64,000 nucleotides of DNA. Source: an uncultured bacterium. GTDB lineage: Bacteria; Babelota; Babeliae; Babelales; Babelaceae. The stretch lies in assembly GCA_963819815.1 (NCBI GenBank), contig CAWFXL010000001.1, forward strand, positions 1,504,001-1,568,000, written 5' to 3'. This document shows, piece by piece, positions 186 through 54,753 of this stretch. The translations under genes and the position numbers were made by a program. Position 1 is the stretch's first letter, and every line of letters starts with the position of its first letter. Below the pieces are notes generated by a model that saw only the letters and a program-made list of their open reading frames with translations, did no database searches and was not told where the DNA came from.

Positions 186-1301
186 ATGAATATTTTTTAT
201 CGCTTATTGGCTGTAACGTTACTTTTAAGTAATGTACCTTGCCTGCTTGGCTGCCAAAGCCCTTCAGCAAATACCAGCTTATTTGTAAATTCTGATTTTG
301 CACCAACAACAGCTTTCGGATATACTCCGTTTGAATTTGTTGTTCCACCAGTTGATTCTGCTACCCTTGTGCAAGGATTTGATGCTCAGTTAGCAGCACA
401 AATTGCACGTAGACTCGGATTTAATGGAGCTGAGTTTAATCAGACAGCATTTGGTATTAATGAAACTGGAAATACGGTAATTGAAAATTTGCTGCTAGAT
501 GTTGAAAATGGAACACCTCAATCAAATATCGGTATTTCCGCAATCTCTATTACACCAAATAGAATCAAAAATTTTCCAGAGTTAGCATTTATACCGTATA
601 ATGATGATGATATGTCGATTATCTTGCAATCTGCATTAGTTGCCGGTGACCCCCTACTTCAAAAGGGTGCGACTGTGCTCGCAAGGTTAAATACTCTGGC
701 ATTCACTCTGGTCGACCTTCAAACGGTATTTACCTTATTCGGTTCTCGTCAGGCGAGTACGGCAACTGGATTTGGTTCTGGCATCATTGCACAGTCTATC
801 AATACTATTGGATCTCCATACAACCGTTTAGAAAGTGCACCCAATGGGAGTGACAAAGCTCAATTTGATAATATTCAGGATGCAGTTACGGCTCTTCTCG
901 CTGCTCTTAAGGCGGGGAATAGACGAAGTCTTTTCATCGATACGCCAACTGCACTTGCCCTTCAGAAACAAGGCCTTATCCCAGGATTTACCGTCGTTAC
1001 GGGTGTGATAATTGATCCTTCTCTTAACGCTTTTAGTTCCTTAGGACTTGGCATTGCCATCCCAGCAGAATGCTGCCAACTGTATGCAAATATTGCGAAA
1101 GCGATACAAGATATGGAAGATGAAGGTGTTCTTGCTGCAATGCGTGCTAAATGGGGAACTGGCTCGTTCACGCCTCCTGCAGTGAACTTAGTACCTTCAG
1201 GTTGTGCGAATACTACCGCAAACATTAACAGCAATGCGATTGCTAATTATATCTTCACGAAGTACTGTCCTCAGGTAGCAACAATTGTTTCTCCTGAATA
1301 A
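186..1301 (+). CDS. Secreted solute-binding-protein family 3 (polar amino acid type) homolog with C-terminal 'NAIANYIFTKYC' motif
   Basis: Signal peptide; SBP3-like motifs GFDAQLAAQIARRLG, ISAISITPNR and LGIAIP...NIAKAIQDMEDEGVLAAMRAKW; extra C-terminal extension; no permease or ATPase downstream (upstream lies outside the window). Confidence 0.75.
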   Translation: MNIFYRLLAVTLLLSNVPCLLGCQSPSANTSLFVNSDFAPTTAFGYTPFEFVVPPVDSATLVQGFDAQLAAQIARRLGFNGAEFNQTAFGINETGNTVIENLLLDVENGTPQSNIGISAISITPNRIKNFPELAFIPYNDDDMSIILQSALVAGDPLLQKGATVLARLNTLAFTLVDLQTVFTLFGSRQASTATGFGSGIIAQSINTIGSPYNRLESAPNGSDKAQFDNIQDAVTALLAALKAGNRRSLFIDTPTALALQKQGLIPGFTVVTGVIIDPSLNAFSSLGLGIAIPAECCQLYANIAKAIQDMEDEGVLAAMRAKWGTGSFTPPAVNLVPSGCANTTANINSNAIANYIFTKYCPQVATIVSPE

Positions 1302-1324
1302 GTATCATTAGTTGATGTATACAA

Positions 1325-1346
1325 AGGGAGTGCGTAAGCACTCCCT
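1325..1346 (+). terminator. Hairpin, probable terminator of 186-1301
   Basis: AGGGAGTGC-GTAA-GCACTCCCT, a perfect 9-bp stem with GNRA loop just after the stop; weak U-tract. Confidence 0.55.
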
Positions 1347-1608
1347 GCCAATCTCCGCTCCTTTAAATGTTTCATAGCTATCCCTGAACATTCAACTATT
1401 AAGGACAAAATCGCTAAGCCTAAGATTAATTTTGGGGCATTTCTGTGTTGCTCGAATTGATTAAAGGGTGATGCTTCTGGAAAAGTAGGCATCTATACGG
1501 TTCTACTGGCTGACTAATTCAAGTTGTTGCTCAATATTTGCTTTGGACAGACTCAATTGATTTATTGGCCATCCTATTTAGCCTTTTGATCGACATTATT
1601 GATCTGTT

Positions 1609-1823
1609 AAAAATTTGGCGCATTATAGGAATTTATAATGCGCCAAATTTTTGAATCTTTTTGAAAATTTGGCGCATTATAAAAAATTTTCATGATTAAT
1701 CCTAATGATCCAACTTTTCATCCAGATCGTTATATCAGAGGGGTTGAAAAAATTTGGCGCATTATAGAGTTTTATAGCGCGCCAAATTTATCTATTGACT
1801 AAAGAATTTTGGCGCATTATAAT
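1609..1823. repeat. Six copies of AAATTTGGCGCATTATA: two 17-6-17 palindromes and two half sites; putative operator array
   Basis: Palindromes at 1611-1650 (perfect) and 1750-1789; half sites at 1665-1681 and about 1805-1821. Confidence 0.9.
1795..1823 (+). promoter_or_regulatory. sigma70-type promoter of the AAA ATPase gene
   Basis: TTGACT (1795-1800), 17 bp spacer, TATAAT (1818-1823); the last repeat copy overlaps the spacer and -10 box. Confidence 0.8.
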
Positions 1824-1840
1824 AAGGGGAGCAAGCAAAA

Positions 1841-3471: not shown

Positions 3472-3492
3472 AAACCTCGGCGGTACAAAAGC

Positions 3493-4209: not shown

Positions 4210-4678
4210 TGTGTTCCCAGAGCCAGGAAGGTGGGAGCTGTACGTAGATGGTGCCGCCCGAAATAATCCCGGACCTGCAGGCGCTGGATTTTATTTGTTG
4301 AAAAATGGCGTGTCAGTTGAAGAACAGGGAATGTTCTTAGGTAAAAAAACGAATAACCAAGCAGAATATTTGGCACTGTTACTGGGAATCTATTACGCTC
4401 AGCAACATATGGGGCCACGTGATACGCTTGTCATAAAAGCAGATTCGCAGCTTATGGTCAGACAGGTGCAGGGGATCTATAAAATAAAAAACAAGGAGCT
4501 AGCAAGAATACATGATGCGATTCGCTCTATGCTCAATGCCTTAAATTTTAAGATACAACATGTACCACGTGAAGAAAATAAAGTAGCTGATAAACTAGCG
4601 AATATAGGAATTGATAAAAAAATAAGAGTTCCCCATGAACTTCTCCTCGTTTGGCCGATATATGAAGATGCTTGGTAA
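4199..4678 (+). CDS. rnhA: Ribonuclease HI (archaeal/actinobacterial type)
   Basis: YVDGAARNNPGPAGAG, TNNQAEY, DSQL and HVPREENKVADKLAN motifs. Confidence 0.92.
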   Translation: MENNVFPEPGRWELYVDGAARNNPGPAGAGFYLLKNGVSVEEQGMFLGKKTNNQAEYLALLLGIYYAQQHMGPRDTLVIKADSQLMVRQVQGIYKIKNKELARIHDAIRSMLNALNFKIQHVPREENKVADKLANIGIDKKIRVPHELLLVWPIYEDAW

Positions 4679-5873
4679 CCTCTATGCAGGTATTCTGATT
4701 GCAGGAGCACTGGGCATGCAGGGTCTCCTTGCAGTACCACCTAAAAAACAGAAATTTGATTACTCCTTTAAGAAGTTAGCACAGGGTATCCCTGTTCGCG
4801 TGCTTCTTGAAGAAAGTGCCGCTAAGGATGTTGCATGGGAGCTGAATTCTGATGAAGGATTTGTGCTCTATGCGCCCACTTCAAAAGAGAAAACGGTACT
4901 CAAAAAGACCAAACTTCTGGTGACTCATAAAAAGGGTACTTTTTATTTGAATGGTCAGAAGATACATGATGCGCATATCTTTGTGCTTCCACTGCGAGGC
5001 TTGATTCGTCATGGAACGATTCCATATGACGGAGTTTTTTCTCTTACCAAGAGTAAAGAAGTTGCCTACTTAGTAAATCATCTTGATCTTGAAGAGTATC
5101 TTATGTCGGTGCTCCCCTATGAGAGTATGCCCGGTTGGCCCGATGAGGTTCAGAAAGCACAGTGTGTTGCGTCGCGTACCTATGCTATTCATAAAGTTTT
5201 AGAGCAACGTGAGCAAAAAAAGAATAATAGAGTAACGCATCCCTATGATATAAAAAGTACTCCGGCACACCAGGTGTACCGCGGTTATGAAAAAACGGCC
5301 TGTTTTAAGCATATTGTAGAAGCAACTCGTGATATTGTACTAGCCTATAATAACAAGCCGATTCTTGCCATGTTTGATACTGCCTGTGGTGGGGTTATTC
5401 CAGGGAAGAAAAAGGGCATTCACTTTGGTAAGGCGCCCTATTTAAAGCGCACCTATGCATGTAATTATTGTAATGAGCATCCTTACTATCGGTGGGAAGC
5501 ACAGCTTTCCTTTGCTGAGCTAGGAAAAAGTTTAGCAACGCTTTTGCCCGATCTTGGGCAGGTTCGTGATATTAAGATCGAATCGCATGATCCAGCCGGG
5601 ATTGTTCAAGCCATTAAAATTAGAGGGAGTCATGGGTGGGTTACGATTAAACCTTCCCAGTTGCGGTCGGTCTGCAAGAATTTAAGAAGCCTCTGCTTTA
5701 CGTTCTCAAAAAAAGGAAGATCGGTGCAAGTTTCTGGAAAAGGATACGGATATCACATGGGGCTCTGCCAATGGGGCGCCTATAATCTCGTAAAAAAAGG
5801 GTGGAACTATAAAAAGGTATTACAGTTCTACTATCCAAATACTACTTTTATGAAACTGAAAAGGTCAGAGTAA
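4662..5873 (+). CDS. SpoIID/LytB domain lytic transglycosylase
   Basis: VNHLDLEEYLMSVLPYE, KAQCVASRTYA, QVYRG, GYGYHMGLCQWGA and LQFYYP motifs; N-terminal hydrophobic segment. Confidence 0.9.
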   Translation: MKMLGNLYAGILIAGALGMQGLLAVPPKKQKFDYSFKKLAQGIPVRVLLEESAAKDVAWELNSDEGFVLYAPTSKEKTVLKKTKLLVTHKKGTFYLNGQKIHDAHIFVLPLRGLIRHGTIPYDGVFSLTKSKEVAYLVNHLDLEEYLMSVLPYESMPGWPDEVQKAQCVASRTYAIHKVLEQREQKKNNRVTHPYDIKSTPAHQVYRGYEKTACFKHIVEATRDIVLAYNNKPILAMFDTACGGVIPGKKKGIHFGKAPYLKRTYACNYCNEHPYYRWEAQLSFAELGKSLATLLPDLGQVRDIKIESHDPAGIVQAIKIRGSHGWVTIKPSQLRSVCKNLRSLCFTFSKKGRSVQVSGKGYGYHMGLCQWGAYNLVKKGWNYKKVLQFYYPNTTFMKLKRSE

Positions 5874-6334: not shown

Positions 6335-6352
6335 GTGTTTCTGCCTACATCT

Positions 6353-13273: not shown

Positions 13274-14797
13274 ATGTGCAGATATCTCTTTACCATCTTA
13301 GCAATAGCATGTTTCCTACAGGGGAACACCTATGGGCAGCATCTTGATAGCTTATCGGATGATGAGACGTCATTAGAAGGCTCGCATGCTTTTACCGGTA
13401 TACCATCGGTAGCTCTTGCGGATGATTCTGAAGATCCTGATTCAGGTAACTGGTATGAAAAGCTTCGCTGGTGGAAAGAAGCCAAAGCACTCTATACCGT
13501 CGACATTCGCTCAGCGATGGATGAACTTGAGGTTATCTATGAGGAGCTTGAAAGCAAGAAGAATGATATTCTCTCAGCTCTTGATAGCTATTCAGCTTCG
13601 CTGCCTTTAAAAAGACAAGCTGCTATACATGTTATTGACGATCTTCTGAATGACCTAACTAAACGACAAGAAGCCTTAGCTCAAGAGCGCACACGCACCC
13701 AAACGCGAAAGAATCCTGAAGAAACGACCGAGCTTGAAGATCATCAGAAGATGCTCAATGAGCTCAAGAAGGAATTTGAGGATTTTAATACGCTCTATCA
13801 GCGGTTAAAGCAAGTATTTGAAGTGGTTATTCCTGCACAGATGCAAACTGCTCATAACTACAGTGAGGAAGCGCTTGCAGCTTATGAAGGAATCGAAGAA
13901 ACACTTGACGATAAGAAGGCTCATGGATTATTTAATCAGGTTCAAAATGGTCTTGAAAATATCCAAGCTATAAGTATGTACCTCAGAGAATCATTATGGA
14001 ACTTTATCGATAAAGCCTGGAATAGCTCTGAGCAGCTGATGCCCAAAATTACCAAAAGTATTACCGACCTTGAAGAAAAAGGTGTGGTGGTGCGTCCTTT
14101 GTCTGCCCAAGAAAAGGCGCAGATGGCCAAACTAGAAGAGGAACGTAAGGCAAAACGGGCTCAAAAAGAGGCTGAACTTAAGGCGCAGAAAGAATGGGAA
14201 GCTCTCCCTTGGTGGCAGAAAGCCTATATGTCAGTTGGGTACTTCTTTTCAAAGATAGGATCAGTTCTCTGGCAGGGAATATCGAAACCATTTACTTGGT
14301 TGGCCGGATTATTTACCGCGCAAGAGGCTGAGAAACCTGAGACGGGCAAGGCTGCAAAAACAAAAAATGGCGTGGCGACTGCTGAAACTGCAGTACCCCA
14401 ACCTCCTCTTCCCACCAAATTACCCGTTGTGGTATCGGGAGCATTAGCACCGCAGAATGGCGCTCAAAAGAATGCGGGTACTGAAAAGGTACAATTCCCT
14501 GAATCAAAAGCACCGATTCAGCCGGTGGGGCGTTCGATATCTCGCAATGAACAACGGCTAGAAAAGCCGGCAAATTCCTCAGAATCGCACAAATCCCGCG
14601 ATGCTGAAGAGCTTGAAGGTGAGGAGCCGACTATCGAGGATGAAGATATTGAAGGTGAAGAATCTGATGATGAGAGTGAGGAAGCTGATGAAGAAGAGGG
14701 TTCTGAGCTTGAATCTGAAGAGGAAGAGTCTCCTGAAGCTGAGCCTGAGAATGCAAAGCCAGACCAAAAAAATCAAAACAATAACTCCAAAGGTTAA
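13274..14797 (+). CDS. Hypothetical exported coiled-coil protein with aromatic amphipathic segment and acidic disordered tail
   Basis: 507-aa ORF with signal peptide, helical core, Trp-rich segment and E/D-rich C terminus. Confidence 0.75.
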   Translation: MCRYLFTILAIACFLQGNTYGQHLDSLSDDETSLEGSHAFTGIPSVALADDSEDPDSGNWYEKLRWWKEAKALYTVDIRSAMDELEVIYEELESKKNDILSALDSYSASLPLKRQAAIHVIDDLLNDLTKRQEALAQERTRTQTRKNPEETTELEDHQKMLNELKKEFEDFNTLYQRLKQVFEVVIPAQMQTAHNYSEEALAAYEGIEETLDDKKAHGLFNQVQNGLENIQAISMYLRESLWNFIDKAWNSSEQLMPKITKSITDLEEKGVVVRPLSAQEKAQMAKLEEERKAKRAQKEAELKAQKEWEALPWWQKAYMSVGYFFSKIGSVLWQGISKPFTWLAGLFTAQEAEKPETGKAAKTKNGVATAETAVPQPPLPTKLPVVVSGALAPQNGAQKNAGTEKVQFPESKAPIQPVGRSISRNEQRLEKPANSSESHKSRDAEELEGEEPTIEDEDIEGEESDDESEEADEEEGSELESEEEESPEAEPENAKPDQKNQNNNSKG

Positions 14798-18877: not shown

Positions 18878-20209
18878 TTACCTGCATTTATCTTTGCATT
18901 TGTCTTTGCATCGGTCCCTATCTGGGCACGGTTTTTCATTACTTGGACATGTTCCTCCTGTGCAGCAGCTGTTTAGACCGGTGGTTTTGTCTACACAACA
19001 TGGGCATACTTTTGCGCTTATACAGCTTTCTGATGATGCTAAGCAGTCTAGTTGTTTAATAAATTGTGCAACAACCGATGATGGCAATGCTCCAAAACCG
19101 AGTGTAGTACCATTATTTTGTGCATAGGTTATGTAGAAGTTAAGGAACTTCTTCAACTCAATTGCTTGGCAATCAGACACTTGACAAGCAAGAGTTACAA
19201 GATTTGTAGGACTGGCAATAGGATATGCACCGGTAACTTTGCTATTAATAGTGCTATAGCGTAGTTGCGGGTCGCTCATTACATTCTGCATTGCAAGTGC
19301 AAAGGTGTTTGTATTTGGTGGTATGAATGTTCCTGATCCGTGGGGATTTTCTACGTTTCCTACCTCATTGGTTGGGAAAGGAGTCGAAGTAGGAATTTGC
19401 AATGGATATACTGATATGAGGTTATTATAGCCTACATAGCCTATCGCACCAGTAGTACCGTGAACGGTGTTTATTACAGCCTGTGTTCCGGTTTGTATAC
19501 TATAATTATTATTTGTACCGACAGGTGTACCATAAGCTTTTTGCCAATCAGTTGCTAAGAACGGACCGAAACCCTGAAGCGTCCAAGCTGGACTTGCGGT
19601 TCCGAGAACATCATTGAGGTAGGTAGTAAAGTCATTTGTTGAACCACTAGCGTCCGCGCGTACAACTATATGGATCGTCCTATTCTTATCAGTAGTAGTT
19701 GTCACATTCAAACCTGGTACCGCACCCCAGGTAGCATAGTGTCCAGCAAAAATCCCTGCAAGCATTTCAGCAGTAAAATGTAAGGGCTCGGTTTGACCTG
19801 GAAGATTATAGTAAGGTACTATGCCTGCAACTGCTACGGGCCAGTTGAGTAAAGGACCATTTGGACAGGTTTGAGCTGCTGTTGGTGGTACATCAGTTCC
19901 CCCAAATTGTTGAAATATAGGCTTGAGAATAGTATTCGTTATCCCAGCAAGAGAATTATTTGGAGTATTATTAGCAGGGGTACCGGTTGTGTTGTTATAC
20001 GTAAGCGTTAGAGCTGGGTCCTCATTATCATAAAAATTATCTACGACAAAATTGCTGAGAGAATAATTAGCTGTTCCAGTTTGACCTTGAACCGTTGATC
20101 CAAAGCCTGCAATGGTGTCATTTTTAAAGCAAGTGGATGTTGTAGTCTGTGCTGTCAGAGAAGCGCAGGCTACTGTTGAAAGTAATACTAAACTTAAAAA
20201 TTTCTTCAT
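18878..20209 (-). CDS. pstS: PstS-like phosphate-binding protein homolog with Cys-rich C-terminal tail (paralog 1)
   Basis: Signal peptide; GFGST, FGGTDVP, IVPYYNLP, VVRADASGSTNDFTTYL, GAIGYV and YPI motifs; 12 Cys in the last 55 aa. Confidence 0.8.
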   Translation of the reverse strand: MKKFLSLVLLSTVACASLTAQTTTSTCFKNDTIAGFGSTVQGQTGTANYSLSNFVVDNFYDNEDPALTLTYNNTTGTPANNTPNNSLAGITNTILKPIFQQFGGTDVPPTAAQTCPNGPLLNWPVAVAGIVPYYNLPGQTEPLHFTAEMLAGIFAGHYATWGAVPGLNVTTTTDKNRTIHIVVRADASGSTNDFTTYLNDVLGTASPAWTLQGFGPFLATDWQKAYGTPVGTNNNYSIQTGTQAVINTVHGTTGAIGYVGYNNLISVYPLQIPTSTPFPTNEVGNVENPHGSGTFIPPNTNTFALAMQNVMSDPQLRYSTINSKVTGAYPIASPTNLVTLACQVSDCQAIELKKFLNFYITYAQNNGTTLGFGALPSSVVAQFIKQLDCLASSESCISAKVCPCCVDKTTGLNSCCTGGTCPSNEKPCPDRDRCKDKCKDKCR

Positions 20210-42760: not shown

Positions 42761-45397
42761 ATGTCTGAAAAGCCGCTCACTCCTTTAATGCAGCAGTACT
42801 TTTCTTTGAAGGCTGCCTATCCTGATACCATCTTGCTCTTTCAAGTGGGAGACTTTTATGAGCTCTTTTTTGAAGATGCTCAAGTAGCTGCGTCTATTTT
42901 AGGTATCGCGCTTACCAAACGTGGATCTCATGGGGGTGAACCGATACCTTTATGCGGAGTTCCCTTGCACGTTCGTGATCATTATCTGACGAAGTTAGTT
43001 AAAGCGGGCTTTAAGGTTGCGCTCTGTGACCAACTTGAAGAGCCGCGCCCAGGAAAATTAGTGGAGCGTGGTATTACCGCTGTGCTTACTCCAGGGACGC
43101 TCACTGACTCAAAACTGCTCGAAGAAAAGTCAGCGTCCTATTTAGCGGTATTCTATGCGACTGAGAACTCATGGACCTTTCTCTGTGCTGAGCTTCTGAC
43201 GGGACAGCTTTTTGTGACCCTTTTTTCTGAACGTACATTGACCGCTTTAGAGGCTGAGCTTACCCGGTTTATGCCCGACGAGATGGTAGTCTTAAAAACG
43301 AAAGCTCCGAGTCCCTATGTGACCTTTTTCCAGCGACAGGGTGTGGTGGTCTCTGTGCAGGAAGCTCCCACGCCACAGGAGCAGTTTGATGCACAGGCAT
43401 GGGTAGCACAACGACTCGCCGAGCCGATATCCTCTGAAAGCTTTCAGGGTGCTATAGAGCTTTTATACACCTATTTAAAAAGGACACATGAGCAGGGACT
43501 CAATGAACTAAAGCAGCTCTCATTCTACCGACCTGAGGATTATTTACTGATTGATGCAGCAACGCAAAGGAACCTTGAGCTTGTAAAAAACAACCAAGAT
43601 GGATCTTTAAAGCATACTCTTTTTTCGGTGCTCGATAAGGCAGTAACACCTATGGGTTCGCGCATGCTTAAGAAGTGGATACTTCGCCCCTTGATAAACA
43701 AAAAACATATTGAAGAGCGTCAGGATGCAGTTGAGCTGTTGGTAAAAGATCATTCATTTAAAACAGCACTCAGAACATCTTGTAAGTCCCTTGGAGATCT
43801 TGAGCGTATTATTGGTCGTATTGCGCTTCGACGGGCACATCTTCACGATTATCAAGCACTCTATGCCGCATTAACCATAGTTCCAACTATTCGGCAGCTG
43901 TTAGCAACGAAGATCTCAGAAAGTAACGTAAGCTTACTCAAGTCTTTAACGAGCCAAATTGGTGATTATGCAGCGGTTACGGCCTTGTTAGCAGATTCTA
44001 TTAACGATGATACCTCAAGTGAGTGGCTTATTAAAAAAGGGTATAATGCTGAGCTTGATCGCTTACGTATGTTAGTTGAGCAGGGAGCTCAGGCAGTAGC
44101 AGCCTTTGAACAGCGGGAGCAGGAGCGAACAGGCATAACCTCTTTGAAAGTAAAATATAATCAGGTACATGGGTATGGTATTGAAGTTACCAAACCAAAT
44201 CTTCATCTTGTTCCAAGCGGGTATCTCAGGATCCAGACTCTTGCAAATCGTGAGCGGTTTACGACACAGGAGCTCAAAGACCTTGAGTATGATCTAAAAA
44301 GGGCACGTGCAGATATAGCACAGGTAGAGAAAGATCTATATGAATCGGTAAAGCAGCAGATTGAGCACCACATTCCTGCATTGAAAAAGGGTGTCTATGC
44401 ACTTGCCTATGCCGATTGCCTGGAAGCTCTTGCCGAGGTTGCCTATGGAATGAGCTATGTTAAACCTGTCATGCTTACTGAACAAACCATTAGCATTAAA
44501 GACGGAAGGCATCCAGTCGTAGAAAGTCGTATACAAGAGCGCTTTATTCCCAACAGTGTCGAATTGACAGATGAGGCTTCTTTATGGATTATTACCGGTC
44601 CCAATATGGGAGGTAAGTCGACGTTTCTTAGACAAGTCGCTTTAATCTGTATTATGGCTCAGATAGGATCATTTGTACCGGCAGCTGAGGCGCATCTTGG
44701 TATTGTTGATAGAGTATTTACGCGTATTGGAGCTTCAGATAATGTTGCTGAAGGCAAAAGTACCTTTCTTGTTGAGATGGAAGAAACGGCCCTTATTTGT
44801 AAACAGGCTACTCAGAAAAGCTTGGTTATCTTAGATGAAGTAGGCAGAGGCACGAGTACGTTTGACGGGTTAGCGATAGCACAGGCAGTTGTTGAGCATC
44901 TCTATGCGACCATACAGGCCCGCTGTCTATTTGCGACCCATTACCATGAGCTGACCGTGTTATGTACCGCGATGCCCGGAATTAAGCCCTATTATGCGGC
45001 AAGTATGAAAGCTGATCAGACCATGGTACTTCTTCATAAAATTTTGCCGGGAGTGGCTGATGGAAGTTTTGGATTAGAAGCAGCAGCGCTTGCTCAGGTG
45101 CCTCCAAGTATTGTGGCACGTGCGCGTGACATCGTTGCCGAGCTTACTCTCTTAGAAGGAACACGGACGCATGCTGTACCTCATACAGATGTCGGCGGCA
45201 CTGTTGGAGGAGAGACTCAACATCTTAAGGCTCTGCAATTACGCAACCAAGAACTTGAGGCCTATGTGGTGCATCTTGATAAAGAGCGAGAAAAAGGGCA
45301 GTATATTGCGGCACAGCTTGCGCAGCTCGATTATGATAACCTTAGTCCAAAGCAGGCGCTCGACCTACTGTGGCAGCTTAAACAGAGGAATCTATGA
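42761..45397 (+). CDS. mutS: DNA mismatch repair protein MutS
   Basis: TPLMQQY, GDFYELF, GRHPVVE, TGPNMGGKST, STFLVEM, DEVGRGT and FATHYHEL motifs. Confidence 0.97.
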   Translation: MSEKPLTPLMQQYFSLKAAYPDTILLFQVGDFYELFFEDAQVAASILGIALTKRGSHGGEPIPLCGVPLHVRDHYLTKLVKAGFKVALCDQLEEPRPGKLVERGITAVLTPGTLTDSKLLEEKSASYLAVFYATENSWTFLCAELLTGQLFVTLFSERTLTALEAELTRFMPDEMVVLKTKAPSPYVTFFQRQGVVVSVQEAPTPQEQFDAQAWVAQRLAEPISSESFQGAIELLYTYLKRTHEQGLNELKQLSFYRPEDYLLIDAATQRNLELVKNNQDGSLKHTLFSVLDKAVTPMGSRMLKKWILRPLINKKHIEERQDAVELLVKDHSFKTALRTSCKSLGDLERIIGRIALRRAHLHDYQALYAALTIVPTIRQLLATKISESNVSLLKSLTSQIGDYAAVTALLADSINDDTSSEWLIKKGYNAELDRLRMLVEQGAQAVAAFEQREQERTGITSLKVKYNQVHGYGIEVTKPNLHLVPSGYLRIQTLANRERFTTQELKDLEYDLKRARADIAQVEKDLYESVKQQIEHHIPALKKGVYALAYADCLEALAEVAYGMSYVKPVMLTEQTISIKDGRHPVVESRIQERFIPNSVELTDEASLWIITGPNMGGKSTFLRQVALICIMAQIGSFVPAAEAHLGIVDRVFTRIGASDNVAEGKSTFLVEMEETALICKQATQKSLVILDEVGRGTSTFDGLAIAQAVVEHLYATIQARCLFATHYHELTVLCTAMPGIKPYYAASMKADQTMVLLHKILPGVADGSFGLEAAALAQVPPSIVARARDIVAELTLLEGTRTHAVPHTDVGGTVGGETQHLKALQLRNQELEAYVVHLDKEREKGQYIAAQLAQLDYDNLSPKQALDLLWQLKQRNL

Positions 45398-46155
45398 TAT
45401 TCAAGTATCCGATCAAAAGAACTTTCAAAGTGTGTTGCTATGCTCTTATGGTGCTCTGTGTGAGTGGCATGATACCTACTGAAGCACGCAAAAGTAAGAG
45501 CCTCCCCAGTGGTACGATTGTGATCGATCCGGGTCATGGAGGACCCTATATCGGATCTGCAAGTCCGTCACAGCAGGTGATTGAAAAACATGCTGTACTT
45601 GAGTTAGCATTGCTCCTTGCTGATCGGTTGCGAGCGAAGGGCTTTACGGTAGTGCTTACCCGTACAGGAGATTATGCACTCGACCCTCGAGACTTGATCA
45701 ATGATTTGAAAATGAGGGCGTATGTAGCTCGCGAGGTGAAAGCTGATATTTTAGTGTCGCTCCATTTAAACTCTTCGCCGAATGAAAAGATTCGGGGCTA
45801 TGAAGTATATGTCCCTTACGAAGATAAGTTCCCCCTAAAGTCCTATGCGTTAGCGAGTGCTATCCATTATGACTTGAGCCATGAGGTAAAGCCTGAATTT
45901 GGTGGTGGTACTCTTGGGAACGTTAATACTATTGATTTGGGTATTCGTGCTTCAAAATTTAACGTGCTCGTACACTCAGTATGTCCTTCGGTGCTTGTTG
46001 AACTTGCCTACCTCTCTCATAAGGAGACGGAAAAACAGCTTCTTACCAAAGCATATAAAGACACCCTAGTTGATGCTCTTTATTTAGGAATACAACGCTA
46101 TTTTGTTCATGCAAAGACGTCTATACATACAATCAAAGCGCTACCAACTCTTTAA
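45394..46155 (+). CDS. N-acetylmuramoyl-L-alanine amidase (Amidase_3)
   Basis: IDPGHGG, EK, LTR, SLHLN and VLVELAY Zn-ligand motifs; signal segment. Confidence 0.92.
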   Translation: MIFKYPIKRTFKVCCYALMVLCVSGMIPTEARKSKSLPSGTIVIDPGHGGPYIGSASPSQQVIEKHAVLELALLLADRLRAKGFTVVLTRTGDYALDPRDLINDLKMRAYVAREVKADILVSLHLNSSPNEKIRGYEVYVPYEDKFPLKSYALASAIHYDLSHEVKPEFGGGTLGNVNTIDLGIRASKFNVLVHSVCPSVLVELAYLSHKETEKQLLTKAYKDTLVDALYLGIQRYFVHAKTSIHTIKALPTL

Positions 46156-47376
46156 AACTCTTCCCTTTTTAAGCTGAGTCAGCAGCGTGCTTGGATAAAA
46201 GAAGCTGAGGATCGTTTTGTACGAGTGTCCTTGGAGATCCATCGCATAGGCTCCCCATTGACAGAGCCCAATATGATGGCCGTAGCCCTTGCCCTTCATT
46301 TGGAGCATGTGTGTATGCGGAATTATTTCACAACAGGCGCTTCGCATATGCTTATAGAAGAGCATTCTAAAATCATGAGCCATCATGCGAAATGTTTTGT
46401 TTTCAGTGTCGGTTATCAGAATATTCTGGGCAATGCCTGCAAGATCGAAGCCATCGATTGCTACTGATGCAACACCCTTAAGCTCGGGGAATTCTTTTTT
46501 TAGGGGGCCTTCTACTTCAGCAAAGGGTAGTGCATTTTCCCATCTGAAGTATTTATTGTCTTTGCAATGGGTGCATGCATAGGTTCTTTTGAGATAGGGA
46601 GCTAGCTCAAACACATCAGTTTTCTTTTCCCCCGGGATGACTCCACCACAGACAGCACTAAACATGGCAAGGATAGGTTTCCTGTTATGAGTGATGATGA
46701 GGCCTTTTGTTGCATCAATTATTCTTTTAAGACTGACTCCTGATTCATAGCCTCTATAGACTTGGTCTTCTACGCCTGAGTATAGGTCAAAAGGATAGGG
46801 CCAGTCTCTTCCAAGTGCTCTTTTATCTGATACACGCGCTACAGCATAGGTTCTGCAGGCAATACACATGGCTTTTTGCACTTCATCGGGCCAGCTTGGG
46901 ACCCCTTCATAGGGAAGTACACATTCAATATAGGGTTCAAGTCCTACGTGGTTCACAAGGTAGGTAGCATCAGACGTTCTTTCAAGAGAAACTATTCCCG
47001 GATAGCCGATGCCATTACATTGAAGGACCCCACTTCTTGGGAGAAAAAAGAGCTGAGATCGATCGATCTTTTTGGTGTTGTAGTATAAGGAGGTGCCTTC
47101 TGAAGAGAGTTCGAGTACCTTATCATCAAGAGGTCTTGTACGACCTGTGATAGGATCATAGAGGGAAATGCCGCCTTCGCATGAAATCTTCCAGTGCACG
47201 TTTGAAGGGAGACTTTCGCAAAGAAGAATTCGAACAGGGTGTTCAAGAGCAAGCTTTTTGTATAAGGATGCATGTTTCTGCAGAGGGAAATAAGCGTGAG
47301 CTGTTTGTGGGAGACACATCATGTCAGAGGTCATGAAGCTTATCATCGCGAAAATATATACGTACGTACCATTCAT
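46141..47376 (-). CDS. SpoIID/LytB domain lytic transglycosylase
   Basis: VNHVGLEPYIECVLPYE, KAMCIACRTYA, DQVYRG and GHHIGLCQWGA motifs. Confidence 0.9.
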   Translation of the reverse strand: MNGTYVYIFAMISFMTSDMMCLPQTAHAYFPLQKHASLYKKLALEHPVRILLCESLPSNVHWKISCEGGISLYDPITGRTRPLDDKVLELSSEGTSLYYNTKKIDRSQLFFLPRSGVLQCNGIGYPGIVSLERTSDATYLVNHVGLEPYIECVLPYEGVPSWPDEVQKAMCIACRTYAVARVSDKRALGRDWPYPFDLYSGVEDQVYRGYESGVSLKRIIDATKGLIITHNRKPILAMFSAVCGGVIPGEKKTDVFELAPYLKRTYACTHCKDNKYFRWENALPFAEVEGPLKKEFPELKGVASVAIDGFDLAGIAQNILITDTENKTFRMMAHDFRMLFYKHMRSACCEIIPHTHMLQMKGKGYGHHIGLCQWGAYAMDLQGHSYKTILSFFYPSTLLTQLKKGRVLKSW

Positions 47377-47680
47377 GGTTATTTCCTTCAAAATACTATC
47401 TTAGCTCTCTCGGTTTTCATAAGTTAGTTTTTTTAAAGAGCTTTGCACGTACTCTACTGCGAGGGCCCACAAATGTCAAAGGGAGGTGTCAGCCGTTACG
47501 CATGAATAGAGAACATTCACCGACTTACTAGCTGCAGATTCGCTTCATGCAGAGCTTCCTTGGAAAGGGCAATGGGATGGAGGTGATTTTGGACGTATCA
47601 AATTTCTTTTATGGTTGGATATTCATTTTTTTCAAACTCTGTGGTGTACGTCGCTTTTTTTGAATTGCCTTTCATGAAGA

Positions 47681-47730: not shown

Positions 47731-48501
47731 CTATACAGGTTCGATAAATATGGTGTTGCTCTGTAAAGCGCAGCTACAATATTTGTTAAATATATAGGCT
47801 TTCAGTGCATTCGCTATTCCCTGAGGAAATGGAAATTGGATGGAGAAACTACTTTCATCATCTGACGGAGTACAATCACCGTGAACGTTTATAAAAGCTG
47901 TAAATGTAGTGGTGCTTCGGAAAGCCGAAAATGTCTGCTGAAAGGGAGTTTTAGACACTTCTTTGAAGGTAGCTGTACTAACTTCAGGTGTGGGTACAAT
48001 TGCAAACTCAACGGGACCAGTATTTGTGGGGCTGCCACCTGGATTAACCACATCTAATGTGATGCATCCTTTCCCACCGCCAAGTGGCAATGAAGTAATG
48101 GTCATGCTTATTGTCTGGTTTGGGTTAGCTTCAGTAAAAGCCACTTCATATTCTATCCCTGGTGTGCCGCTAGAATCGGTTACAGTTAAATTAAATGAAA
48201 CACTATCACCTCCTGCATTTGTAGGTACATCGGTAAAGTTCGCTGTTACTCCAGTTTGGGGTGCTAAATCTGTGACAGGCGTGCCGTTGGCATTGGTTAT
48301 ATTATAGGTATATTGACCTGAAGAAGTAGGTATACCACCAGAGGCAGTTACTGATATATTTGCTGTTGGTACTAGAGCGTCCGGATTACTACACCCATTA
48401 GGACTGATAGTTATATTTTGGATAAATAGCGGCTGAGGACCGGTCGTTTGAGCAGCTATGCTGATAGGCATTGCGAGTAAGGTGAGTAAGAGTTTCTTCA
48501 T
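47731..48501 (-). CDS. Secreted Thr/Pro/Gly-rich beta-sandwich-like protein, array copy 1
   Basis: MKKLLLTLL signal; SGG.P...YTY...TVTDS (SprB/Ig-like pattern); ends NALKAYIFNKYCSC. Confidence 0.85.
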   Translation of the reverse strand: MKKLLLTLLAMPISIAAQTTGPQPLFIQNITISPNGCSNPDALVPTANISVTASGGIPTSSGQYTYNITNANGTPVTDLAPQTGVTANFTDVPTNAGGDSVSFNLTVTDSSGTPGIEYEVAFTEANPNQTISMTITSLPLGGGKGCITLDVVNPGGSPTNTGPVEFAIVPTPEVSTATFKEVSKTPFQQTFSAFRSTTTFTAFINVHGDCTPSDDESSFSIQFPFPQGIANALKAYIFNKYCSCALQSNTIFIEPV

Positions 48502-48555
48502 ACACTTCCTTTGAGTGAAATTATGGATTTTGATACATATTAATGCGTGTAAACT

Positions 48556-48585
48556 AACTTACCATAGGTATTTTTTGAAAAGCAA
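48556..48585 (-). promoter_or_regulatory. Representative conserved promoter of the array units (TTGCTT, 18 bp, extended -10 TGG-TAAGTT)
   Basis: Same element at 49575-49604, 50609-50638, 51641-51670, 52665-52694, 53619-53648 and 54806-54835. Confidence 0.65.
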
Positions 48586-48753
48586 CAATTTGTCCCTTAA
48601 GCTATCAGCCTTTCGTTGTATGAATCTCCCAAATATGTAAATCCTATTCCTAGGCTTGTTATTGATGCAATAGATGCTGGTGTCCTCTCTCAGGGAAAGA
48701 GGGGCGCTATAAGCACCCCTCCTAACAGATTCAAAAGTTACATTAAGCGTGCG

Positions 48754-49518
48754 CTAGGCAGCTGTAGGTGTTACTACCTTAACCGTACCGCTCTGTAAGG
48801 TGCAGCTGCAATATTTGTTAAAAACATAGGCCTTCAATGCATTAGATAGTCCTTGCGGAAACGGAAAATTGATTTTGAAGTCAGAAAAATCATGAGGGCA
48901 ATCACCTATAACAGTAACTTCAGCAGTGAGCTCTGTGCTCCCTGGGGTTGGGAAAGCAGAAAACGTCTGTTGGAAAGGCTCTTTGGTTATTGGTGTAGAA
49001 GCAGGTTCATCTTCGGTCGATGGGAAAATTGCAAAATGAACTTCGCCGGTACCTGTTGTGTTGCCAGCAGGATTAGTAACGAGTAAGGTAATGCAACCTG
49101 GACCAGAACCAAGAGGTAATGAGGTAATAGTCATACTAACTGATTTTGTGCCAGATTCAGTAAAAGTCACTTCATATTCTACTGGTGAGCCACTGTTTGA
49201 AGAATCGGTTACGGTTAAATTATAACTTGTACTGGTATCATCAAGACCTGTAGCGACGTCAGTAAAGTTCGCTGTTACTCCAGTTTGGGGTGAGCCTGTG
49301 ACAGCTGTGCCGCCGAGAGTAGCTAAATTATAGGTATATTGACCTTTAGAATCAGGAGTTCCACCTGTGGCGGTCACTGATATATTTGCAGTTGGTGTAC
49401 CAGTTGCTGGACACCCATTAGGACTGATAGTTATATTTTGGATAAATAACGGCTGAGGACCTACTTGGGCCCCAAGGCTAATATGCATTGCTAGTAATGT
49501 GAGTAAGAGTTTTTTCAT
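48754..49518 (-). CDS. Secreted array protein, copy 2
   Basis: Paralog; start at MKKLLL after an AAAGGAAG RBS; ends NALKAYVFNKYCSC. Confidence 0.85.
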   Translation of the reverse strand: MKKLLLTLLAMHISLGAQVGPQPLFIQNITISPNGCPATGTPTANISVTATGGTPDSKGQYTYNLATLGGTAVTGSPQTGVTANFTDVATGLDDTSTSYNLTVTDSSNSGSPVEYEVTFTESGTKSVSMTITSLPLGSGPGCITLLVTNPAGNTTGTGEVHFAIFPSTEDEPASTPITKEPFQQTFSAFPTPGSTELTAEVTVIGDCPHDFSDFKINFPFPQGLSNALKAYVFNKYCSCTLQSGTVKVVTPTAA

Positions 49519-49772
49519 ATACTTCCTTTGAGTACGATGGTGGGTTGTTTGATAGTTAGTAACGCTTTCACAGTAACTTACCATAGACATTTTTAAGAAA
49601 GCAACAATTTGTCATTTAAGATGGCAGGTTTTTGTTGTATGAATTAGCCACAGCTGCAAACCATTTTCCTAGGCTTGTGATTGACACAATGTATGCCGGT
49701 GTTCTTTCGCATGCAAAGAGGGGCGCTTATAGCGCCCCTCCTGACAGATTCAAAAATTACATTAAGCGTGCA

Positions 49773-50552
49773 CTAAACTGTAGGTGTTACTACCTTGACC
49801 GTACTGCTCTGCAAGGTGCAGCTACAATATTTGTTAAAAACATAGGCCTTCAATGCATTAGATAGTCCTTGCGGAAATGGAAATACGATTTTGAAGTCAG
49901 AGCCGCCAACAATATCTTCACAATCACCGACAACGGTAACTTCAGCCGTAAGTTCTGTGTTCCCTGGGGTTGGGAAAGCAGAAAACGTCTGTTGGAAAGG
50001 CTCTTTGGTTACTATTGCAGGAGTGGGTTCATCTTCGGTTGATGGGAAAATTGCAAATTGAACGTCACCGGTACCCGTTGTGTCGCCTGCAGGGTTAGTA
50101 ACGAGTAAGGTAATGCAGCCTGCATCACTGCCAAGTGGCAATGAATTAATGGTCATGCTTACTGATTTTGTTGCGGATTGGTTAAAAGTCACTTCATATT
50201 CTACTGGCGAGCCACTGTTTGAAGAGTCGGTTACGGTTACATTATAATTTATCGAAGCTCCTAATTTACCAGTAGGGACATCAACAAAGTTCGCTGTTAC
50301 GGCAGTTTGAGATGGGAAATCTGCAACAGGCGTACCGTTGAGATTGGTTAAAGTATAGGTATATTGACCTGAAGAATTAGGAGTACCACCTGAAGCGGTT
50401 ACCGATATAGTTGATCCGGAGAATGGATTTATTTCTCCATCAAAACACCCATTCGGGCTGAAAGTTATATTTTGGATGAACAACGGCTGAGGACCCACTT
50501 GTGCAGCAAGACTGATGGGCATTACGAGTAATGTGAGTAAGAGTTTCTTCAT
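49773..50552 (-). CDS. Secreted array protein, copy 3
   Basis: Paralog; same signal peptide and C-terminal motif. Confidence 0.85.
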   Translation of the reverse strand: MKKLLLTLLVMPISLAAQVGPQPLFIQNITFSPNGCFDGEINPFSGSTISVTASGGTPNSSGQYTYTLTNLNGTPVADFPSQTAVTANFVDVPTGKLGASINYNVTVTDSSNSGSPVEYEVTFNQSATKSVSMTINSLPLGSDAGCITLLVTNPAGDTTGTGDVQFAIFPSTEDEPTPAIVTKEPFQQTFSAFPTPGNTELTAEVTVVGDCEDIVGGSDFKIVFPFPQGLSNALKAYVFNKYCSCTLQSSTVKVVTPTV

Positions 50553-50805
50553 ACACTTCCTTTGAGTGAAATTGTGGATTCTGATACATATATTAACGTG
50601 TCTAAACTAACTTACCATAGACATTTTTTGAAAAGCAACAATTTGTCCTTTAAGATATCTGGTTATCATTTTATGAATTACCCACAACTGCGAACGATTC
50701 TCCAGGCTTGTTATTGGTGCACTATTAGTAGTGCATTTTTCTCATGCAAAAAGGGGCGCCGAAGCGCCCCTTTACTATCAAAAGAAATTAAATTATGCAG
50801 ATGCA

Positions 50806-51585
50806 CTAGGCTGTAGGTGTTACTACCTTAACGGTACTGCTCTGTAATGTGCAGTTGCAATATTTGTTAAAAATATAAGCCTTCAGTGCATTAGATAATC
50901 CTTGAGGAAATGGAAATACGATTTTGAAGTCAGCGACGCCATCGCCATTGTCACAATCACCGTCAATCGTAACTTCAGCGGTGAGCTCTGTGCTCCCTGG
51001 GGTTGGGAAAGCAGAAAACGTCTGTTGGAAAGGGACCTCGGTTAATGTCGTAGGAGTAGGCTCGTCCTCAGTAGATGGAAAAATTGCGAATTGAACTGGG
51101 TTAGGATTCGTTGTGTTGCCTGCAGGGTTAATAACGAGTAAGGTAATGCAGCCTGCACCACTGCCAAGTGGCAATGAATTAATGGTCATGCTTACTGATT
51201 TTGTTGCGGATTGATTAAAAGTCACTTCATATTCTACTGGCGCGCCACTGTTTGAAGAGTCGGTTACGGTTAAATTATAACTTGTAGGGTCTTCGTTAAT
51301 AGCTGTAGGGACATCAATAAAGTTTGCTGTTACTCCAGTTTGGGGCGAGCCCGTGACAGCATCGCCACTCAGGTCAGCTAAGTTATAGGTATATTGACCT
51401 TTAGAATCAGGAGTTCCACCTGTGGCGGTTACCGATATAGTTGATGCGGGGTGTGGATTTGTAGTTGCATTAAAACACCCATTAGGACTGATAGTTATAT
51501 TTTGGATAAACAACGGCTGAGGACCCGTCGTCTGAGCAACAATGCTGATAGGCATTGCGAGTAATGTGAGTAAGAGTTTCTTCAT
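50806..51585 (-). CDS. Secreted array protein, copy 4
   Basis: Paralog; start at MKKLLL; ends NALKAYIFNKYCNC. Confidence 0.85.
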   Translation of the reverse strand: MKKLLLTLLAMPISIVAQTTGPQPLFIQNITISPNGCFNATTNPHPASTISVTATGGTPDSKGQYTYNLADLSGDAVTGSPQTGVTANFIDVPTAINEDPTSYNLTVTDSSNSGAPVEYEVTFNQSATKSVSMTINSLPLGSGAGCITLLVINPAGNTTNPNPVQFAIFPSTEDEPTPTTLTEVPFQQTFSAFPTPGSTELTAEVTIDGDCDNGDGVADFKIVFPFPQGLSNALKAYIFNKYCNCTLQSSTVKVVTPTA

Positions 51586-51837
51586 ACACTTCCTTTGAGT
51601 GAAATTGTGGATTTTGAACATATATTAACGCGTTTAAACTAACTTACCATAGACATTTTTTCAAAAGCAACAATTTGTCCTTTAAGATATCAGATTTTTG
51701 TTGTATGAATCGCTCACAGCTGCAAACCATTTCCCTGGGCTTGTGATTGGTCAATATATGCAGCGGTCCTGTCTCATGCAAAGAGGGGCGCTTATAGCGC
51801 CCCTCCTAACAGATTCAAAAATTACATTAAGTGTGCA

Positions 51838-52608
51838 CTAGGCTGTAGGTGTTACTACCTTGACCGTACTGCTCTGCAAGGTGCAGCTGCAATATTTGTT
51901 AAAAATATAGGCTTTCAGTGCATTCGATAGTCCCTGAGGAAAGGGAAATACGATTTTATAGTCAGCAATTCCATCTTCGTCCGTACAATCGCCGTGAACC
52001 GTAACTTCAGCCGTAAGTTCTGTGCTCCCCGGAGTTGGGAAGGCAGAAAAGATTTGCTGGAAAGGCGCTTTGGTCAGTGTTGTAGGAGTAGGCTCGTCAT
52101 CGGTAGATGGGAAAATTGCAAAGTCAACTGTGCCAGTACCCGTAGTATTGCCTGCAGGATTAGTAACGAGTAAGGTAATGCAGCCTGCACCACTGCCAAG
52201 TGGCAATGAAGTAATGGTCATGCTTATTGTCTGGTTTGAGTTAGCTTCACCAAGAGTCACCTCATATTCTACTGGTGACCCAGTGCTTGAAGAATCGGTT
52301 ACGGTTACATTAAAACTTCTGGAGTCCCCGTCATTATCTAAAGGGAGATCAGTAAAGTTTGCCGTTACAGCAGTTTGGGGCTCTGGAGCAAATGGGCCAT
52401 CCAGTTCAACTAACGTATAGGTATATTGCCCTGAAGAACTAGGAGTACCACCTGAGGCGGTCACTGATATATTTGCCGTTGGTGTACCAGTTGTAAGACA
52501 CCCATTAGGACTGATAGTTATATTTTGGATAAACAGCGGCTGAGGACCCGTCGTCTGAGCAACAATGCTGATAGGCATTGCCAGTAATGTGAGTAAGAGT
52601 TTCTTCAT
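51838..52608 (-). CDS. Secreted array protein, copy 5
   Basis: Paralog; start at MKKLLL; ends NALKAYIFNKYCSC. Confidence 0.85.
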   Translation of the reverse strand: MKKLLLTLLAMPISIVAQTTGPQPLFIQNITISPNGCLTTGTPTANISVTASGGTPSSSGQYTYTLVELDGPFAPEPQTAVTANFTDLPLDNDGDSRSFNVTVTDSSSTGSPVEYEVTLGEANSNQTISMTITSLPLGSGAGCITLLVTNPAGNTTGTGTVDFAIFPSTDDEPTPTTLTKAPFQQIFSAFPTPGSTELTAEVTVHGDCTDEDGIADYKIVFPFPQGLSNALKAYIFNKYCSCTLQSSTVKVVTPTA

Positions 52609-52847
52609 TAACTTCCTTTGAGTAAAATTGTGGATTTTGAACATATATTAACGCGTCTATGGTAACTTTACCATAAGTGTTTTTAAAAAAGCAATCTTTT
52701 TTAACCTTTTGTTTGTGATTTCTTTTCTACAACCTCCCTCATATTCTTGAACTATTAAGATAATTTATATAGTTGCTAACCCAAAAGGGGCGCTTAAGCG
52801 CCCCCTACTTTTCAAAAATTAAATATGAATCCAAGCATACCAGTATT

Positions 52848-53567
52848 TCAGGATACCGGTATTGTATTACTGCTTAGATTGCAATTGCAATATTTGTTAA
52901 AAATGTACGCTTTCAAATCATTAGCATTTCCTTGCGGAAAAGGGAATTGTATTTCAAAGAAGCTTGTTTCGTTAGGAGCGCAGTCATTCTGGACTTCAAC
53001 TACTGCTGTAAGTGTCGATGTTCCGGGAGTGCGGAATGCAGCAAATTGTTGAGTGAATGGAGCAGGTATTTCTTTCCCATTTTGTGTGGCAATTACTTGA
53101 GAGGACCCAATGCCAACTATGGCCGAACCAGTTAGCTTTCCTCCGGGTCCGAAGACTTGCAAGGATATGCATCCTGGTGCATTGCCAAGTGGTAATGAAA
53201 TTATATTCATGGCTATTTGCAGAGTTTGAGAAACAGGAAGCACGAGCATAGTTGTTACAGTATTATTCGCTGAATCTGTTACTTGCAACGTTGTAGGCTC
53301 TTCTACAGGAACGTTTGCAAAACTGGCAGTTGGCACCGTTAATGGAGAACCACCGAAGGGTTTGTTTTCTACGAGTAATGTATACGTATAGGGAGGTTGA
53401 CCACCTGCAGCCGTTGCTAAGATGTTTGCCGTCGCTGCAATTCCTGGATTGGGATTGGCACACCCTTGAGGATTGATGGTAATATTTGAGAAATATAATG
53501 GTTGCGGACCCGACAGAGCAGCAAGGCTAGCAGGGAGCATAAGTAATGTAAGTAAAAGTTTCTTCAT
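52848..53567 (-). CDS. Secreted array protein, copy 6 (subfamily B)
   Basis: Paralog with AGGQPPYTY; ends NDLKAYIFNKYCNC. Confidence 0.85.
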   Translation of the reverse strand: MKKLLLTLLMLPASLAALSGPQPLYFSNITINPQGCANPNPGIAATANILATAAGGQPPYTYTLLVENKPFGGSPLTVPTASFANVPVEEPTTLQVTDSANNTVTTMLVLPVSQTLQIAMNIISLPLGNAPGCISLQVFGPGGKLTGSAIVGIGSSQVIATQNGKEIPAPFTQQFAAFRTPGTSTLTAVVEVQNDCAPNETSFFEIQFPFPQGNANDLKAYIFNKYCNCNLSSNTIPVS

Positions 53568-53739
53568 GAGTTTCCTTTTTGGTAAAATATGTTTGGCATG
53601 TAATACGCGTCATAAGCTAAATTACCATAAGCCTTTTTAAAAAAGCAACGATTTGCCTTTTTTTTTTACGAGCATTCTGTTGAAAGACTCAAAGCACATT
53701 TCGGTATGACCAGTGATAATACTAGATTTCTTGCTAACA

Positions 53740-53870
53740 CGAGGGACGCTAAAAATCCCTACCTATCTAAAAAAATATGATTAATCTATAGATGCTGAAC
53801 ACCTGACGATAAGTTGTATGGTAATTCTGTAAGGTGCTACCATACCACTTGTTACCTATATAAGCCTTCT
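53740..53870 (-). pseudogene. Degenerate remnant of an eighth array unit (C-terminal motif and terminator only)
   Basis: Minus strand 53868-53824 translates KAYIGNKWYGSTLQN (compare KAYIFNKYCSCTLQS); decayed hairpin at 53742-53760 with flanks homologous to 52770-52830. Confidence 0.65.
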
Positions 53871-54033
53871 GGGGCACAAGGAATGACTTTTGATTTTTCG
53901 TTCGTAATTTCTTTTTTAACCGCCATTGCACTCTTGAACTAGTAAGAGAGTTTCATAGAGTTGCGTAGCATAGGGGCGCTTAAACGCCCCTATGCTACGC
54001 AGAAAGAATGTAATGCAAGCAGGCGCAGTACTT

Positions 54034-54753
54034 TTAGGATACTGGTATTGTGTTTTTGCTTAGAGCACAGCTGCAATATTTGTTAAAGACGTATGCTTTT
54101 AAGGCATTAGAGATTCCTTGGGGAAAAGGAAATGTGATACTAAAAACGCTACTTGAACCAGTTGTGCAATCATTTTCGACTATTACTACTGCTGTAAGTG
54201 TCGATGTCCCTGGCGTTCTGAATGCGGCAAATTGCTGAATAAAAGGCGCGGGGAATAATTTCGCATTCGTTTCGGCAATTGGCAAAGAAGATCCAATGCC
54301 AACAAAAGCTGAGCCAGTAAGTTTTCCTCCAGGTCCGACAACTTGCAAGGTAAAGCAGCCTGGAGCATTGCCAAGTGGCAATGAGGTAATATTCATGCTT
54401 ACTTGCAGAGTTTGAGAAGTAGGAAGTGTAATGGTATTGGTTACAGAATTATTTGCAGAATCTGTTACCGTCAAAATCACAAGCGAGTTAACGGGGATAC
54501 CGGCAAAATTTGCAGTTGCCGTTGTTAACGGAGAACCACCGAAAGGCTTGCCTTCTACGAGTAATGTGTACGTATAGGGAGGTTGCCCACCTGCAGCCGT
54601 TGCTAAGATATTTGCCGTTGGTGCAAGTGCCGGGTTGGGATTGGTGCATCCTTGGGGGTTGATGGTAAGATTTGAAATATATAAGGGTTGAGGACCTGCC
54701 AGAGCAGCAAGGCTCATAGGCATGATGAGTAATGTGAGCAAAAGCTTCTTCAT
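54034..54753 (-). CDS. Secreted array protein, copy 7 (subfamily B)
   Basis: Paralog most similar to copy 6; ends NALKAYVFNKYCSC. Confidence 0.85.
   Translation of the reverse strand: MKKLLLTLLIMPMSLAALAGPQPLYISNLTINPQGCTNPNPALAPTANILATAAGGQPPYTYTLLVEGKPFGGSPLTTATANFAGIPVNSLVILTVTDSANNSVTNTITLPTSQTLQVSMNITSLPLGNAPGCFTLQVVGPGGKLTGSAFVGIGSSLPIAETNAKLFPAPFIQQFAAFRTPGTSTLTAVVIVENDCTTGSSSVFSITFPFPQGISNALKAYVFNKYCSCALSKNTIPVS

Follow-up and report, generated by a model that had tools for sequence, protein, structure and literature searches.

Short portable motifs on unrelated exported proteins are familiar from LPXTG, PEP-CTERM, GlyGly-CTERM and MYXO-CTERM, and in the dockerin-cohesin system a module tolerant of position docks a variety of enzymes onto one shared surface receptor. 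Both arrangements recall a 12-residue peptide, here called the tag, that is carried by eight proteins encoded in a 64,000-nucleotide stretch of DNA from an uncultured bacterium of the phylum Babelota (assembly GCA_963819815.1, contig CAWFXL010000001.1, positions 1,504,001 to 1,568,000; hereafter the window). Genes for tagged proteins show linkage to a single subfamily, type A, among Cys-rich barrels of the outer membrane. In contrast to the sorting motifs, the tag has neither a membrane helix nor a basic tail and is not confined to the C-terminus; in contrast to dockerin, it is much shorter, lacks calcium loops and would have a membrane barrel as its receptor. The data suggest a hitherto undescribed mode of surface display of interchangeable proteins, by a helix tag and a barrel.

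Two secretion systems offer closer comparisons. The cargo signal of type XI secretion systems (T11SS) is a barrel domain, not a short helix. As far as the partly accessible descriptions of Type XI secretion (Slam/DUF560) go, one outer-membrane protein goes with adjacent cargo genes whose functions vary, as here; the barrel described below belongs to another family, with no DUF560 match in a Pfam scan. In type IX secretion (the T9SS), cargo whose C-terminal domain (CTD) is of type B is paired with PorP/SprF proteins (SprB-SprF, PG1035-PorP). The accessible part of PMC9143113 describes Sec-exported, adhesin-type cargo, SprB repeats included, which a cognate barrel of the outer membrane retains at the surface by means of the attached signal; the genes are linked. 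Here, a 12-residue helix that may be internal or N-terminal takes the place of the folded CTD, and the barrel is PF13557-like, not PorP/SprF. Pfam identified no T9SS CTD on 29 tagged or neighbouring proteins, nor on 20 in another scan; a search of the source genome for PF18962 gave no match, and the control genomes gave none either. On our best reading, the tag would work like type-B CTD/PorP anchoring without belonging to a T9SS.

The source genome (G000) comprises 1.64 Mb in two contigs (C1 and C2) and is 88% complete. A first-pass annotation of the window had reported eight open reading frames (ORFs) ending in a shared motif. Re-reading the ORFs and their ends bears this out (Table 1); the coordinates stand as described, except that the last ORF ends at 54759 if its first Met is used. 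The tag can be written [NS]-x-[IL]-x-x-[YFA]-I-x-x-K-Y-(C), and the consensus of its instances is [NS]-[APS]-[IL]-x-x-[FYA]-I-x-x-K-Y-C, where the Cys column is invariant by construction. A relaxed pattern matched 20 six-frame segments of the genome and none in reversed sequence, and a hidden Markov model of the motif scored 19 seed proteins at 35-53 bits (seeds match by construction), as against 6.3 bits or less for reversed proteins. Profile search of the genome returned 22 motif matches, of which 14 belong to the array family (seven in the window; two of the remaining seven partial). The others are four SBP3-like proteins and one fragment, a 1415-amino-acid (aa) SprB-repeat protein, a beta-helix protein and a 41-aa peptide that consists of a signal peptide and the motif and nothing else. 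Weak matches in short or non-coding frames, and internal matches in a conserved 544-568 aa protein, were rejected as chance. Pfam and NCBIfam gave no meaningful family or sorting-signal match for any of 30 tag instances. A 67-aa secreted peptide (L011, G000:C1:860631-860834), conserved in G001, carries a Cys-less motif directly after its signal.

The tag is portable: across Babeliales, its passengers have at least seven unrelated folds. The two passengers of the window had been judged unrelated, and structure models agree. The protein at 186-1301 was modelled with a mean predicted local distance difference test (pLDDT) of 79 and matched amino-acid-binding proteins in Foldseek (SBP_bac_3 in Pfam), whereas the array protein forms two immunoglobulin (Ig)/fibronectin type III (FnIII)-like sandwiches (mean pLDDT 78). 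In both models the tag is a low-confidence helix outside the passenger fold: an additional helix at pLDDT ~56 in the former, and in the latter a helix that begins inside a stretch below 50 pLDDT (residues 229-241). The motif, with its one Cys, lies 10 residues before the C-terminal end of the SBP3-like protein, and 12-17 residues before the end in the seven array proteins, where a second Cys follows. All five canonical SBP3 relatives inspected lack the tag, as do the three other SBP3 paralogues of the same genome, which have apparent N-terminal anchors. The signal of the tagged SBP3-like protein ends in a lipobox-like L-L-G-C, and the protein may therefore be a lipoprotein. This signal end (window 186-260) is common to the protein and its closest relative, P0002, and both lack a Cys near residue 70 that paralogues retain; Lgt is encoded in the genome.

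The tag is not strictly C-terminal, since internal, N-terminal and stand-alone copies exist. Of 13 aligned beta-helix homologues, four (G000, G001, G003 and G006) have the tag as an insertion of 25-30 residues in the same loop; the other nine lack it there, and one of these (G005) has it at the mature N-terminus. An N-terminal tag is also found on a GMC oxidoreductase and a 201-aa protein, giving at least three such proteins. Mini-genes encoding only a signal and the tag adjoin holB in G000, G001, G003 and G006, the G000 and G001 copies differing by five silent and three replacement codons among 42; at the same locus G004, G005, G007 and G008 have tagged SprB-like genes instead. The models and genome scans thus uphold the claim of a portable, lineage-specific tag on varied exported passengers, outside either fold, and do not support that of a C-terminal sorting signal in the LPXTG/PEP-CTERM sense. 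Among other beta-helix proteins, those encoded at L242:3121-7329 (G003) and L124-L137 carry paired Cys, up to 90 Cys in all, in coiled-coil-like repeats at the N-terminus, and their genes are usually followed by one for a conserved 500-530 aa secreted protein without a Pfam match.

Cys-based attachment, which had been proposed as one possible basis of the system, is not supported, since G, S, A or L replaces the Cys in many barrel-linked variants. Loss of the tag Cys in several lineages makes cleavage or lipidation unlikely as a core function. A processed, lipidated C-terminal signal, resembling MYXO-CTERM or a host-palmitoylated helix, would fit the position of the Cys near the C-terminus in most copies and the presence of two Rce1-like proteases and Lgt in the genome. 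We nevertheless consider it very improbable: the 2-17 residue tails after the motif have no membrane helix or basic tail, as had been noted earlier, some copies are internal, N-terminal or Cys-less, the 30 instances scanned matched no sorting signal, and the linkage to barrels would be left unaccounted for. Neither sortase nor exosortase was found in the 88% complete genome (rhomboid was not searched for).

To define the spread of the tag, iterated profiles were run over 261 phylum genomes, with matches checked by reading ORFs and retained if on apparently exported proteins (signal peptides were assigned by eye and with a crude script, not with a dedicated predictor). The tag is present in all 10 genomes of the genus and also in other families; an early impression that it was confined to one genus, due to insensitive early profiles, was overturned by later, more sensitive searches. 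Further tagged passengers include lactonase-type and DUF5122 propellers, BBE/flavin adenine dinucleotide (FAD) oxidases, the GMC oxidoreductase, proteins with DUF11 repeats, and Ig/PKD giants that reach 2700 aa. A search of 1.84 billion proteins gave 27 matches, 24 of them in array, SprB-like or SBP3-like families, and a companion search gave 26 in these families plus one beta-helix protein, divergent variants being beyond the reach of both; the other three of the 27 are multi-repeat proteins (one inspected) and were set aside. One genome, G094 (75% complete), has an internal motif match of doubtful standing, and no type-A barrel was found in it. Barrel-flanking Ig giants at L201, L291 and L321 (G187, G185 and G184) end in paired Cys, in some cases followed by an aromatic-rich helix without K-Y; these endings are possibly a diverged form of the tag.

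Evidence for a partner came from gene neighbourhoods. The recurrent neighbour of tagged genes is a 490-550 aa Cys-rich protein with a terminal outer-membrane-type aromatic residue. The broad barrel family to which it belongs was first dismissed as a partner, since it occurs in 41/41 relatives; only the type-A subfamily tracks the tag. Type A comprises the copies beside tagged genes, which score above 440 bits with a subfamily profile, as against at most 221 bits for paralogues. It occurs in 62 of the 261 phylum genomes and in 25 of the 25 whose tags had been verified before barrels were considered; 17 of these supplied training barrels, and the remaining eight match at E<=1e-134. A putative outer-membrane partner, of the kind for which the first-pass annotation had advised profiling, can thus be named.

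The linkage was also examined starting from the barrel. From the 96 type-A matches listed, 40 unexamined regions were taken together with 20 regions around paralogues; two were dropped because their tags were in the training set, and C-termini were scored with a Cys-ignoring position-specific scoring matrix (PSSM). A score of at least 12 was reached by 9/73 direct neighbours of type-A barrels, compared with 0/42 neighbours of paralogous barrels and 2/308 distant genes. In a metagenome set of 45 loci, from which three were dropped as below the type-A score and three as repeats, the same mark was reached by 11/56 type-A neighbours and 1/61 distant genes. Across the source genome 17 of 1416 genes reached it, all previously recognised as tagged. 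Many of the newly found barrel-neighbour tags end in K-Y-G, K-Y-S, K-Y-A or K-Y-L. The source genome has two type-A barrels, both outside the window. An array paralogue lies two genes away from one of them; the other, running off the end of C1, probably precedes the pair of tagged SBP3-like genes found where C2 ends, given the synteny with G002, G005, G007, G008 and G009. At L090 (G004:C3:369177-370472) the type-A barrel beside the tagged SBP3-like gene is interrupted by stops; another type-A barrel in G004 is intact.

Prediction of a barrel-tag complex points in the same direction. A G235 barrel (18-row alignment) was modelled with the last 40 residues of its tagged neighbour and scored 0.85, with 0.07 for the best of three controls. 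The mark used is reached by 116/157 solved complexes and 2/215 mismatched pairs, counts that are approximate here because our own alignment was used. Agreement between runs covers 83% of contacts or more, the pLDDT of the partner is 62 or above, and only partner residues 24-38, which correspond to the motif, contact the barrel, led by motif positions 3, 6, 7 and 10. The tag helix is thus predicted to bind the type-A barrel. If the helix instead self-associated to bundle cargo, with the barrel linkage reflecting mere clustering of envelope genes, the stand-alone mini-peptides would be explained; this is hardly credible, as the linkage is specific to type-A barrels (paralogues: 0/42) and the predicted complex passes the mark.

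The barrel side of the interface consists of segments 100-109, 169-171, 302-313 and 379-400, and includes Cys383, which is common among the barrels. From a reading of the strands and the topology of FapF, these four segments would be long extracellular loops. By fold, the type-A barrel is nearest PF13557 in Atlas (template-modelling score 0.62-0.67 to PF13557 models; features 0.93). No relative among solved structures was found by sequence, and Pfam at E<=0.01 gave no match for three type-A barrels and one paralogue, PorP/SprF, DUF560 and PF13557 included. According to the accessible part of PMC9581022, PF13557 is the family of COG4313 channels; FapF, in the accessible part of PMC5557850, is structurally closest to these channels and forms a plugged barrel of 12 strands in which P-T-G sits at the base of loop 5-6. 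FapF/COG4313 is thus the nearest named fold class for the type-A barrel, which has 12 strands by reading of the model, a probable N-terminal plug and a conserved P-T-G (P229 invariant, T230 near-invariant) at the same loop base, between the fifth and sixth strands. It differs in its much longer loops, its many Cys and its lack of a sequence match to solved members, and it is linked to folded, diverse cargo, in contrast to the amyloid subunits or small-molecule uptake of FapF/COG4313.

A rival reading makes the barrel the exporter as well: a FapF-like channel with a plug as its gate would thread tagged cargo, unfolded, across the outer membrane and then retain or release it by the tag. The kinship with PF13557 and FapF and the barrel-cargo gene pairs, typical of T11SS in the partly accessible descriptions, are consistent with export. 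Against this, the cargo, up to 2700 aa long, is rich in disulfides or binds FAD while a 12-stranded pore admits only unfolded chains, a tag in an internal loop is awkward for threading, the predicted site lies in the long loops and not in the lumen, and secretins offer an alternative route. We therefore regard export by the barrel as rather unlikely, though it is the main rival. A similarly doubtful extension would make the type-A barrel and the 12-residue helix a stand-alone secretion-and-display system that recognises diverse cargo by the helix wherever it is placed, exports it and wears it as exchangeable caps, with the mini-peptides as blanks or competitors; a barrel acting as exporter would, if true, amount to a novel secretion system that consists of one protein and serves diverse cargo. 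Of the earlier suggestion of a dedicated exporter, the part favoured by the evidence is recognition by a dedicated envelope protein, which may export the cargo or only anchor it.

We lean towards the view that the helix is an uncleaved docking signal holding surface proteins on the type-A barrel, with a disulfide lock as an option. Tagged proteins would cross the inner membrane by Sec and gain the cell surface by another route, the genome having four secretin genes. The tag helix would then bind the barrel through the four leading motif positions, in a pocket formed by the extracellular loops; since the pocket would lie in these loops, cargo (adhesin-like Ig/SprB and beta-helix proteins, propellers, orphan binding proteins and flavin oxidases) would be held uncleaved at the surface. 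Tags that have a Cys may be locked by a disulfide to a Cys in a barrel loop. In the source genome, all 22 tagged genes would be served in trans by two barrels, making the cargo interchangeable surface caps.

Several observations weigh against the docking reading. The modelled complex is of G235 proteins and not those of the source genome, none of the three controls was a paralogous barrel, and close cousins of true partners can also pass the complex score. The sidedness of the loops comes from the strand reading and FapF homology, not from coordinates. Covariation between tag Cys and loop Cys (16/8/3/7, p=0.068, lineages not independent) is below the preset significance, and would be strengthened if four shorter variants were counted, post hoc, as Cys-bearing. 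As for linkage, 26/38 type-A loci have no neighbour scoring 8 or more, none of the window's eight tagged genes adjoins a barrel, and the counts include related genomes that are not independent. Within the same genus, many SprB-like proteins are untagged. Finally, the short amphipathic helix described in the first-pass annotation holds only as a helix, modelled at low confidence; its hydrophobic moment (0.31, compared with 0.27 ± 0.13 for shuffles) is not significant.

The chlamydial envelope is a disulfide mesh, and tagged proteins might likewise be kept in the periplasm, with the tag Cys cross-linked to Cys-rich turns of the barrel. The barrels carry 11-28 Cys, many in short turns, and most of the conserved Cys would lie in short turns on the periplasmic side; the array proteins have an odd Cys count, and the genome encodes VKOR and small Cys-rich secreted proteins. 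Cys-rich secreted families of the genome, small ones included, are seen for example at C1:885466, 836637, 1146268-1147995, 724531 and 360080-374871, and include a 16-member family of ~525 aa. The accessible parts of two reports add that most lipopolysaccharide (LPS) genes are missing from Babeliales (PMC4776705) and that dark periplasmic material is visible in Chromulinavorax (PMC6561590). A mesh is improbable all the same, as the Cys is dispensable in many barrel-linked tags, the predicted interface lies within long loops and the passengers are of surface-protein type. VKOR and the four secretins would provide for oxidation in the periplasm and for a type II-like exit; searches of the source genome for DsbB and DsbA-like families gave no match. 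In their accessible parts, PMC4776705 and PMC6561590 describe an LPS-poor envelope and many signal-peptide proteins and no tag or barrel system, and the openly accessible literature, supplements excluded, gave no account of either in this phylum.

Table 1. Tagged genes of the window (array, 47731-54759) and the type-A barrels of the source genome
Feature	Position	Strand	Basis
SBP3-like secreted protein, orphan, 371 aa, tag-bearing	186..1301	+	ORF, Pfam SBP_bac_3, structure model and fold matches
Tag helix of SBP3-like protein, residues 350-361	1233..1268	+	helix 351-360 at pLDDT ~56 in model
Array protein 1, two Ig/FnIII-like sandwiches and tag	47731..48501, tag 47776-47811	-	ORF, model, fold matches
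Array protein 2, likely start 49518	48754..49590, tag 48808-48843	-	ORF and motif
Array protein 3	49773..50552, tag 49824-49859	-	ORF and motif
Array protein 4, likely start 51585	50806..51621, tag 50857-50892	-	ORF and motif
Array protein 5, likely start 52608	51838..52644, tag 51889-51924	-	ORF and motif
Array protein 6	52848..53567, tag 52887-52922	-	ORF and motif
Array protein 7	54034..54759, tag 54073-54108	-	ORF and motif
Type-A barrels, outside window, putative partners	C1:153113-154594; C1:1603552 to contig end		

Other genes of the window are recorded here. The array is flanked by two SpoIID/LytB genes (46141-47391 and 54840-56042) with an adjacent amidase (45394-46155), and a third SpoIID gene lies at 4635-5873. 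A tandem pair of PstS-like proteins (18878-20209 and 20376-21725, minus strand) has Cys-rich tails with 17 Cys in total and no K-Y-C tag; the tails are possibly another cross-linking or anchoring module. A 601-aa secreted protein with a weak PAP2 match (30841-32646, minus strand) presumably resembles vanadium haloperoxidase. Upstream of secD, a secreted coiled-coil protein with an acidic tail (13274-14797, plus strand) has no Pfam or NCBIfam match.

As intracellular parasites of protists, Babelota are widespread; their outer membrane is poor in LPS, and their surface biology is almost uncharacterised. The tag provides a sequence handle on their surface proteome, including adhesins, binding proteins and oxidases, and with a putative receptor named, host attachment becomes testable. 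A peptide of 12 residues that acts independently of its position and has one barrel as its receptor would, if true, be among the simplest surface-display modules known.

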